A stretch of 39,615 bases of DNA from Escherichia phage PSK1. The first letter of the stretch is position 1. Every line of letters begins with the position of its first letter. This document shows, one piece after another, positions 37,111 to 38,423 of the stretch. Both the position numbers and the translations under genes were made by a program. The notes under the pieces were generated by a model. The model was not told where the DNA came from. It was given only the letters and a program-made list of their open reading frames with translations, and did no database searches. The stretch lies in the sequence record PP541512.1. One strand, 5' to 3'.

Positions 37111-38160
37111 ATGGCAAACGTTCCGGGTCAGAAAGTTGGTACAGACCAAGGTAAAGGCAAATCTGGTTCCGACGCTCTGGCGTTGTTCCTTAAGGTCTTT
37201 GCTGGCGAAGTCCTGACAGCATTCACTCGCCGCTCTGTAACTGCTGACAAGCATATTGTCCGTACCATTCAGAACGGTAAGTCTGCTCAGTTCCCTGTCA
37301 TGGGTCGCACCTCTGGTGTGTATCTGGCTCCGGGTGAGCGACTGTCCGATAAGCGTAAAGGTATCAAACATACCGAGAAAGTGATTACCATTGATGGTCT
37401 GCTGACTGCCGATGTGATGATTTTCGACATTGAAGACGCGATGAACCACTATGACGTGGCTGGCGAGTACTCCAACCAGTTGGGCGAAGCTCTGGCTATC
37501 GCTGCCGATGGTGCGGTACTGGCTGAGATGGCTATTCTGTGTAACCTACCGGCTGCATCTGATGAAAACATCGCTGGTCTTGGCAAAGCGTCTGTGCTGG
37601 AAGTTGGTACTAAAGCAGACCTGAACACTCCGGCTAAGCTGGGTGAAGCAATCATCGGTCAACTGACCATTGCTCGTGCGAAGCTGACATCCAACTACGT
37701 TCCTGCTGGCGACCGTTACTTCTACACCACGCCGGACAACTACTCTGCAATCCTCGCGGCTCTGATGCCGAACGCTGCTAACTATGCTGCGCTGATTGAC
37801 CCAGAGACTGGTAACATCCGTAACGTAATGGGCTTCGTGGTTGTTGAAGTTCCACACTTGACTCAGGGTGGTGCTGGGGAAACTCGTGGTGCCGATGGTA
37901 TCACTATTGCGACTGGTCAGAAGCACGCCTTCCCAGCTACTGCTACTGGTGATGTTAAAGTTGCTCTGGACAACGTTGTGGGCCTGTTCTCTCACCGTTC
38001 TGCTGTAGGTACTGTTAAGCTGCGTGACTTGGCGCTGGAACGTGACCGTGACGTCGATGCTCAGGGCGACCTGATTGTTGGTAAGTACGCTATGGGTCAC
38101 GGTGGTCTGCGTCCAGAAGCAGCAGGCGCACTGGTTTTCACAGCGGCGTCAGTGGGTTAA
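37111..38160 (+). CDS. Major capsid protein (gp10A)
   Basis: 349 aa; LALFLKVF.GEVLTAF, HTEKVITIDGLLTADV, DIEDAMNHYDV, LMPNAANYAALIDPE, RNVMGF.VVEVPHLT.GGAG, HRSAVGTVKLRDLALER, KYAMGHGGLRPEAAGA match T7 gp10A as remembered. Confidence 0.95.
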   Translation: MANVPGQKVGTDQGKGKSGSDALALFLKVFAGEVLTAFTRRSVTADKHIVRTIQNGKSAQFPVMGRTSGVYLAPGERLSDKRKGIKHTEKVITIDGLLTADVMIFDIEDAMNHYDVAGEYSNQLGEALAIAADGAVLAEMAILCNLPAASDENIAGLGKASVLEVGTKADLNTPAKLGEAIIGQLTIARAKLTSNYVPAGDRYFYTTPDNYSAILAALMPNAANYAALIDPETGNIRNVMGFVVVEVPHLTQGGAGETRGADGITIATGQKHAFPATATGDVKVALDNVVGLFSHRSAVGTVKLRDLALERDRDVDAQGDLIVGKYAMGHGGLRPEAAGALVFTAASVG

Positions 38161-38423
38161 CGACCTTTAAGGCCCTCTCTACAGAGGGTCCTACCTTAGA
38201 GACGTATAGTTCTACGGTTGGAACCAGCCTGAAGGTTGACTTCCCTGAGCTTTCAGATGTGACCGATTGGTCGCTGCTTGAGGTGACTACGCCTGATGGT
38301 GTTAGCTACTCCCGTAGAACCAACAGTCTCTACTTCAAGGCCACCTCTGGCGTGGAAGGTCTGGTGATTGTTGGGTATGACGGTACGCCTGTGCGTTCCT
38401 TCAACGTATCTTTCACAAACTAA
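37111..38423 (+). CDS. Minor capsid protein (gp10B), predicted product of a -1 ribosomal frameshift at GGTTTTC (38133-38139)
   Basis: Slippery G GTT TTC sits 7 codons before the gp10A stop; the -1 frame stays open for about 94 further codons to TAA 38421-38423. T7 makes gp10B the same way (recalled). Confidence 0.6.

Follow-up and report, generated by a model that had tools for sequence, protein, structure and literature searches.

In gene 10 of phage T7, ribosomal frameshifting takes place at the site G_GU_U_UUC (PMC5009743), with an efficiency of about 10% (PMC1635266), and the T7 record annotates the product 10B as a joined coding sequence (CDS). The extensions that such frameshifts add to capsid proteins vary. 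That of T7 has been stated not to be immunoglobulin-like (Ig-like), whereas that of T3 is (PMC5009743). In K1F, the type species of the genus Kayfunavirus, 10B has been described as reaching "44 triplets" beyond 10A (PMC6277420), and fusions of gene10b to GFP and adhesins were displayed on virions (PMC6277420, PMC13370021); K1F g10b::gfp virions were fluorescent. The 10B record of Citrobacter phage CR8 (HG818824) annotates a -1 frameshift and notes "matches in mass spectrometry analysis" for the product, and the record of Escherichia phage Peacock (MK903279) contains a joined CDS for a minor capsid protein of 437 amino acids. Here we describe gene 10 of Escherichia phage PSK1 (PP541512.1), analysed in a stretch of 39,615 nucleotides (nt) that is referred to below as the window. 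A -1 ribosomal frameshift at 38133-38139 very probably makes an extended capsid protein, 10B, in this phage as well, and the extension is predicted to fold into an Ig-like domain.

Read in the frame of the capsid gene, the window carries the heptamer G_GTT_TTC close to the end of 10A. The codon TTC is followed by six sense codons (ACA GCG GCG TCA GTG GGT), and the TAA at 38158-38160 is the seventh codon. An earlier reading of the letters of this DNA, the first-pass annotation, had placed the heptamer seven codons before the 10A stop, and both the register and the count were confirmed. It had further described the -1 frame as open for about 94 codons to 38423 and as ending just before the late terminator; the stop map gives 94 sense codons past the slip (38139-38420) with a TAA at 38421-38423, and a terminator-like hairpin and T-run start 3 nt past this stop. 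In the 324 codons upstream the -1 frame contains 30 stops, the first at 37152 and the last at 38082. These are followed by an open run of 112 codons (38085-38420), the probability of which is about 2e-5 at the upstream stop density. Inspection by eye of the zone in which both frames are open, and in which the shift must fall, revealed GGTTTTC as the sole homopolymeric slip-prone motif.

GGTTTTC is not over-represented in the window, where three copies were found against 4.0 expected, and only the copy at 38133 is followed by a long -1 open reading frame (ORF). We take the shift site to be beyond chance because the heptamer and the long -1 ORF occur in combination and are conserved in relatives. 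The other two copies were considered as shift sites and rejected. The copy at 18163 lies outside the G_GTT_TTC register of any long ORF. The one at 10950-10956 stands in the G_GTT_TTC register within a 917-codon ORF (9967-12720), but its -1 frame (GGT_TTT_C) closes after 10 codons, and a slip there would only truncate the protein of that ORF.

For comparison we assembled 62 loci with a homologous extension, 56 from IMG/VR, four from annotated phages and two from other fetched records; a further locus, OP272493 (L064), was left out since its annotation is split into many short ORFs. The heptamer GGTTTTC is found in register in 60/62 of these loci, the remaining two having CGTTTTC. The first-pass annotation had named stops in the -1 frame of close relatives as an observation that would speak against the frameshift, and none was found: in 62/62 loci the frame continues without a stop from the site through the whole domain. 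The position of the 10A stop shifts among the same loci, from 3 to 6 codons downstream of the heptamer. Furthermore, the heptamer and its register are identical in T7, K1F, CR8 and KP32. The extension protein is conserved across Kayfunavirus, Caroctavirus and Przondovirus, with identity down to about 42% and the invariant pattern VTDWS...RRTN.LYFK...DG...F. A tblastn search found it in 454 phage records, which include Kayfunavirus, Przondovirus (KP32, K11), Caroctavirus (CR8), Pectobacterium phages and others.

The two relatives with C_GTT_TTC are Przondovirus-like loci from IMG/VR (L058 and L063), and the -1 ORF is intact in both. This suggests that the A-site slip on U_UUC may be the indispensable part of the signal.

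Purifying selection acts on the extension past the 10A stop in the -1 frame alone. In a set of 13 distinct Kayfunavirus sequences the ratio of nonsynonymous to synonymous polymorphism (pN/pS) was 0.20 in the -1 frame versus 1.5-1.8 in the other two, and the variable columns were distributed over the three codon positions as 19, 14 and 54. The corresponding -1 value for 41 Przondovirus sequences was 0.25. Across all comparisons the -1 frame had pN/pS values of 0.17-0.25, and the other two had values of 1.2-3.5.

The structure of the extension was modelled with AlphaFold2 from a 41-sequence alignment. Past the disordered linker the model is an all-beta, two-sheet sandwich of seven strands with a predicted local distance difference test (pLDDT) score of about 90. 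Its top Foldseek match in the PDB is 2l04, the Ig-like domain of lambda gpV, with a template modelling (TM) score of 0.55-0.57, and in the viral library a single match was strong, to the "minor capsid protein" of Pectobacterium phage PP81. By sequence, a search against Pfam gave chance-level matches only and no family, and a search against PDB sequences found no relative, the matches to carboxypeptidase and Rab being at chance level. The extension corresponds to PHROG 7473 (E = 7e-37), which is listed with "unknown function". When 1.84 billion representative proteins were searched exhaustively with a profile, 14 clusters were returned; these were small ORFs on contigs of about 40 kb and a few large multi-repeat proteins, which matched weakly through their repeats. 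This type of domain was found only downstream of T7-like capsid genes. The suggestion of the first-pass annotation that the extension could be a decoration or Ig-like domain is thus upheld by the predicted fold from AlphaFold2 and Foldseek, but not by membership of any curated Ig-like sequence family (Big_2, I-set, FN3 and similar), and on the strength of the model the domain should be filed as Ig-like by fold only.

The proposed course of events is as follows. Most ribosomes on the late capsid mRNA would pass G_GUU_UUC and stop at 38158-38160, giving the 349-amino-acid 10A. A minority would slip back by one base with tRNA-Val on GUU and tRNA-Phe on UUC. The tRNA-Phe would move from UUC to UUU, a pairing that is perfect by wobble, and the tRNA-Val from GUU to GGU, with partial re-pairing. 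The shifted ribosomes would then read 94 further codons to 38421-38423 and produce a minor capsid protein 10B of 437 amino acids, with the full HK97-fold body, a flexible linker of about 17 residues and an Ig-like beta sandwich of about 77 residues. The junction peptide predicted for this product is YAMGHGGLRPEAAGALVFHSGVSGLTTFK, and its RP-cleaved form PEAAGALVFHSGVSGLTTFK. Tandem tRNA slippage is established for T7 and, by analogy, is the best-supported mechanism for PSK1, where the efficiency may be close to the T7 value. We infer that 10B would be built into virions, which would place the Ig-like domain on a subset of the capsid subunits. The C-terminus of T7 10A is exposed on the outer surface of the capsid, and this exposure is the basis of display on T7 and K1F; the Ig-like domain should therefore be displayed on the surface. 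Its most likely role would be that of an accessory adhesin that binds weakly to mucus or to surfaces rich in carbohydrate, as has been proposed for other phage Ig-like domains. This role is much less certain than the frameshift and the 10B product.

The first-pass annotation had recognised in this locus the 10A/10B arrangement of T7, and this was right for the shift but not for what follows it. Both capsid proteins belong to family PF21703 (70% identity), and T7 has the same G_GTT_TTC in the same register, a few codons before the 10A stop, together with the joined 10B CDS. The T7 extension also ends just before the terminator Tphi, as in the window. However, it comprises 56 residues past the shift and has no sequence similarity to the folded 94-residue extension of the window, which is an unrelated cassette. 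In addition, the 10A stop of T7 comes after 3 sense codons past the heptamer, compared with 6 in the window.

The relationship with K1F is closer. The 10A proteins are 95.7% identical, and the DNA of K1F differs from that of the window by a single base over the stretch that begins 43 nt upstream and runs through GGTTTTCA. The extension DNA that follows cannot be aligned, and the two are identical again from AACTAA (the last two codons) through the terminator. K1F carries a short T7-type extension of 48 residues past the shift, whereas the window carries the PHROG 7473 Ig-like cassette. Judged from this alignment, the cassette between slip site and terminator is exchanged relative to K1F, the exchanged segment being 38140-38417 in the window and 1166-1300 in the K1F locus (L006). 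K1F-type extensions were found in 35 phage records. An assignment of the window extension to the T7/K1F type (...EETLTP.Q.AARTRAAN...) was rejected, with BLASTP E values of 2.7-16 and a K1F alignment that breaks exactly after GGTTTTCA. A similar pattern was seen in three other loci (L018, L019 and L021), in which 10A is 94-95% identical to that of the window, yet the domain is of the CR8-like version with about 50% identity.

CR8 itself belongs to another genus, Caroctavirus. It has the same heptamer, a 10A that is 82% identical to that of the window and a homologous extension of 91 residues (50% identity). Peacock shows no difference of substance, with 98.4% nucleotide identity and the same junction in its joined CDS. 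T3 resembles the window in that a -1 shift late in 10A gives its 10B an Ig-like extension of similar length. Unlike the domain of the window, the T3-type domain is promiscuous, being found in 404 records, in tail and other proteins of many unrelated phage groups. A T3-type (Big_2-like) identity of the window extension was also rejected, as BLASTP gave E >= 2 and the shift site of T3 differs (C_CCA_AAG).

How the extension is reached can be considered independently of its function. In most GenBank records the downstream ORF appears as a separate small gene with its own start codon, a "hypothetical protein" of 54-87 amino acids; gene callers give such ORFs in most relatives, and PHROG 7473 was built from them. 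The called lengths, however, differ among relatives (54, 64, 68, 75, 76, 84 and 87 amino acids), whereas the heptamer and the frame relation to 10A are invariant. In the window, the -1 frame contains no ATG, GTG or TTG from the upstream stop at 38082 to a GTG at 38259. This GTG has no Shine-Dalgarno sequence and sits inside the invariant VTDWS motif, and a product initiated there would lose the first two strands of the domain. Codons 9-40 of the extension, the 32 codons 5' of this first start-like codon, have a pN/pS of 0.17. Since codons upstream of any possible start are also constrained, the extension must be reached from gene 10A. The lack of a start before GTG 38259, the constraint on codons 9-40 and the inconsistency of the called starts make independent initiation very unlikely, and we consider a separate gene highly improbable. 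We hold it to be equally improbable that the phage RNA polymerase slips on the run of four Ts and deletes one base in a fraction of the mRNAs. The CR8 record does mark "tttt" as a feature, and the protein product would be nearly the same, which leaves the two mechanisms inseparable by sequence data. Productive transcriptional slippage, though, is known to need homopolymer runs much longer than four. Moreover, what is conserved is not a mere T-run but a heptamer whose codon register is fixed, a pattern characteristic of re-pairing by tandem tRNAs, and the T7 site has been classed as one of ribosomal frameshifting (PMC5009743).

A third explanation accepts the frameshift and concerns only the domain, which could be structural rather than an adhesin, acting as a capsid cement, a stabiliser or an assembly aid at particular positions. 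Ig-like decorations that contact capsomers are known, and P2_50 of phage Peru-2 has been proposed as a vertex stabiliser. The Foldseek matches in the PDB include chains of the phage N4 capsid reconstruction, and the authors of the K1F work, who obtained no pure phage with gene10b interrupted, suggested that 10B is needed. T7, on the other hand, is viable without 10B. The 17-residue linker is predicted to be disordered, as would be expected of a tethered probe more than of a cement. Close capsids, with 10A 95.7% identical, bear an unrelated short extension, so that a specific contact with the capsid body seems unneeded. We therefore regard a structural role as rather unlikely, although clearly a stronger contender than either of the two alternatives to frameshifting.

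Several observations weigh against a -1 frameshift to 10B in PSK1, or against the support drawn for it from relatives. Experimentally, the nearest support comes from the database note for CR8, with an extension of 50% identity, and K1F, the source of the support from display, carries the other type of extension. The heptamer alone is weak evidence, as it occurs at chance frequency in the genome, and the in-register copy at 10950 stands without a useful -1 ORF. A canonical 3' stimulator was not found by local folding, consensus folding or spacer-terminator pairing. The fold of the 128-nt segment that starts at the heptamer is no better than those of shuffled sequences (z = -1.48), the consensus fold across the cassette types is weak (-5.4 kcal/mol), and pairing of the 30 nt past the heptamer with the terminator region was at chance level in seven phages (z -1.4 to +0.9). 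The usual spacing of a stimulator is 5-9 nt, and the only hairpin begins 26 nt downstream, beyond this range. The stimulators of T7, which have been described as unexplained, involve a CCCC of the terminator at a distance of more than 200 nt (PMC5009743). A terminator with ACCCC is present in the window, 287 nt downstream of the slip site.

The hairpin in question (38165-38201) lies in the linker-coding region, and a strong hairpin of its own is found in each type of cassette (that of the window, of CR8 and of Przondovirus), 20-29 nt 3' of the heptamer and likewise in linker-coding sequence, which is weakly constrained. The hairpins were examined in 56 loci. The Przondovirus hairpin, at +20 to +62 after the heptamer (L022 and other loci), has 18 pairs, and in 32 distinct sequences 98.8% of the cells are paired, compared with 35-52% in controls in which the 3' partner was slid. 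Two of its pairs covary, from A-U to G-C and from C-G to U-A, and these changes alter residues of the linker; the cells that covary may trace back to few events. For the window type, codons 11-20 are less synonymously variable than codons 21-30, yet codons 61-70 are equally quiet, and conservation of the hairpin in this group is only suggestive. We regard the structure at 38165-38201 as a candidate RNA element, with a spacing too long for a direct stimulator. It might nevertheless stimulate frameshifting at a non-canonical distance, for example by stalling a leading ribosome that then collides with a ribosome on the slip site. We consider this improbable. If true, it would help to explain the long-unresolved stimulator requirement of gene 10 frameshifting in the T7 family, and the hairpin would establish a class of bacterial -1 frameshift signals with a new spacing.

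The frameshift was known before this work, as is evident from the joined CDS of Peacock, the mass-spectrometry note of CR8 and the display on K1F gene10b, and our findings on it leave the current understanding of 10A/10B frameshifting unchanged. What is added is modest: the Ig-like fold of the PHROG 7473 cassette, the exact boundaries of the cassette, the extent of mis-annotation and the linker hairpin. In most records of this large group of coliphages, which are therapeutic candidates, and Klebsiella phages, the minor capsid protein appears as two entries, a capsid gene and a "hypothetical protein". Recognition of the frameshift corrects the virion proteome and marks a natural low-copy display site that has already been used in K1F. 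With the slip site and the terminator both fixed, the extension between them forms an exchangeable cassette, and the locus is a clean example of how phages alter the capsid surface with the capsid body untouched.

The features of the capsid locus are collected in Table 1.

Table 1. Features of gene 10 and its flanks in the window (positions in nt; position 1 is the first letter of the window)
Feature	Position	Strand	Basis and remarks
Phage-RNA-polymerase promoter-like sequence ACTAAACTATCACTATAGGGAGA, phi10 position	36986..37008	+	Read from sequence, upstream of the capsid gene
Shine-Dalgarno AGGAG of gene 10	37097..37101	+	Read from sequence; 9 nt 5' of the ATG
Gene 10A, major capsid protein, 349 amino acids, 36.3 kDa, zero frame	37111..38160	+	ORF; TAA 38158-38160
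Overlap zone, zero and -1 frames both open	38085..38157	+	Three-frame stop maps; the shift must fall inside
Slippery heptamer G_GTT_TTC	38133..38139	+	Register X_XXY_YYZ (ctG GTT TTC) from capsid ATG 37111
Disordered linker, first 17 codons of the -1 extension (HSGVSGLTTFKALSTEG)	38139..38189	+	AlphaFold2, pLDDT < 50 for residues 1-17; purifying selection acts here too (pN/pS 0.17 for codons 9-40)
Bipartite RNA hairpin (CTTTAAGG-CCCTCT / ctac / AGAGGG-tccta-CCTTAGAG)	38165..38201	+	Minimum-free-energy fold; linker-coding region
Predicted Ig-like seven-strand beta-sandwich (extension residues 18-94) and 10B TAA	38190..38423	+	AlphaFold2
Intrinsic terminator-like hairpin and T-run (Tphi equivalent)	38426-38466	+	17-pair stem; 3 nt past the 10B stop
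Predicted 10B product, 437 amino acids, 45.9 kDa			

The capsid region is 99.6% identical to that of Escherichia phage vB_EcoP-U8, and the window belongs to Kayfunavirus, the K1F-like genus of T7-family phages. The capsid protein is a member of the Gp10A-like family of Pfam (PF21703, E = 1e-104), the HK97-fold major capsid family of T7-like phages, and matches the PDB sequences 9vvq (E = 4e-214) and T7 10A (2xvr, E = 3e-145). The signals that flank the gene have counterparts in annotated relatives. We take ACTAAACTATCACTATAGGGAGA to resemble the core of the T7-type late promoters (CACTATAGGGAGA). The records of T7 and T3 annotate the phi10 promoter at the equivalent place, and that of Peacock a ribosome-binding site where the AGGAG of gene 10 stands. 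The terminator sequence is identical in the window, K1F and Peacock, and the Tphi annotated in T7 and T3 occupies the equivalent position.

Gene 10 is followed by gene 11, for tail tubular protein A, near the 3' end of the window. Relative to the usual T7-like map the window as a whole is circularly permuted, with genes 9, 10 and 11 at its 3' end (36064-39149) and not near the middle.

Between the terminator and gene 11 the window contains an insertion of about 100 nt that is not present in K1F or Peacock and is flanked by a repeat of the Shine-Dalgarno and ATG context of gene 11 (TAAGGAG..CTATGG). Within it lies a hydrophobic ORF of 29 amino acids (MVLIYTGLALFVLFWAYLLSSSPSSAYDR, 38482-38571), preceded by a strong Shine-Dalgarno sequence, AAGGAGG, at 38471-38477. 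The insertion with this ORF was found in 46 phage records, mostly without annotation. The ORF could be a small membrane-protein moron. Another ORF, of 75 amino acids (39149-39376), lies between genes 11 and 12 and is an insertion relative to T7; it is labelled "DUF3850" in Enterobacter phage EV136_1 and "hypothetical protein" in Peacock and U8.

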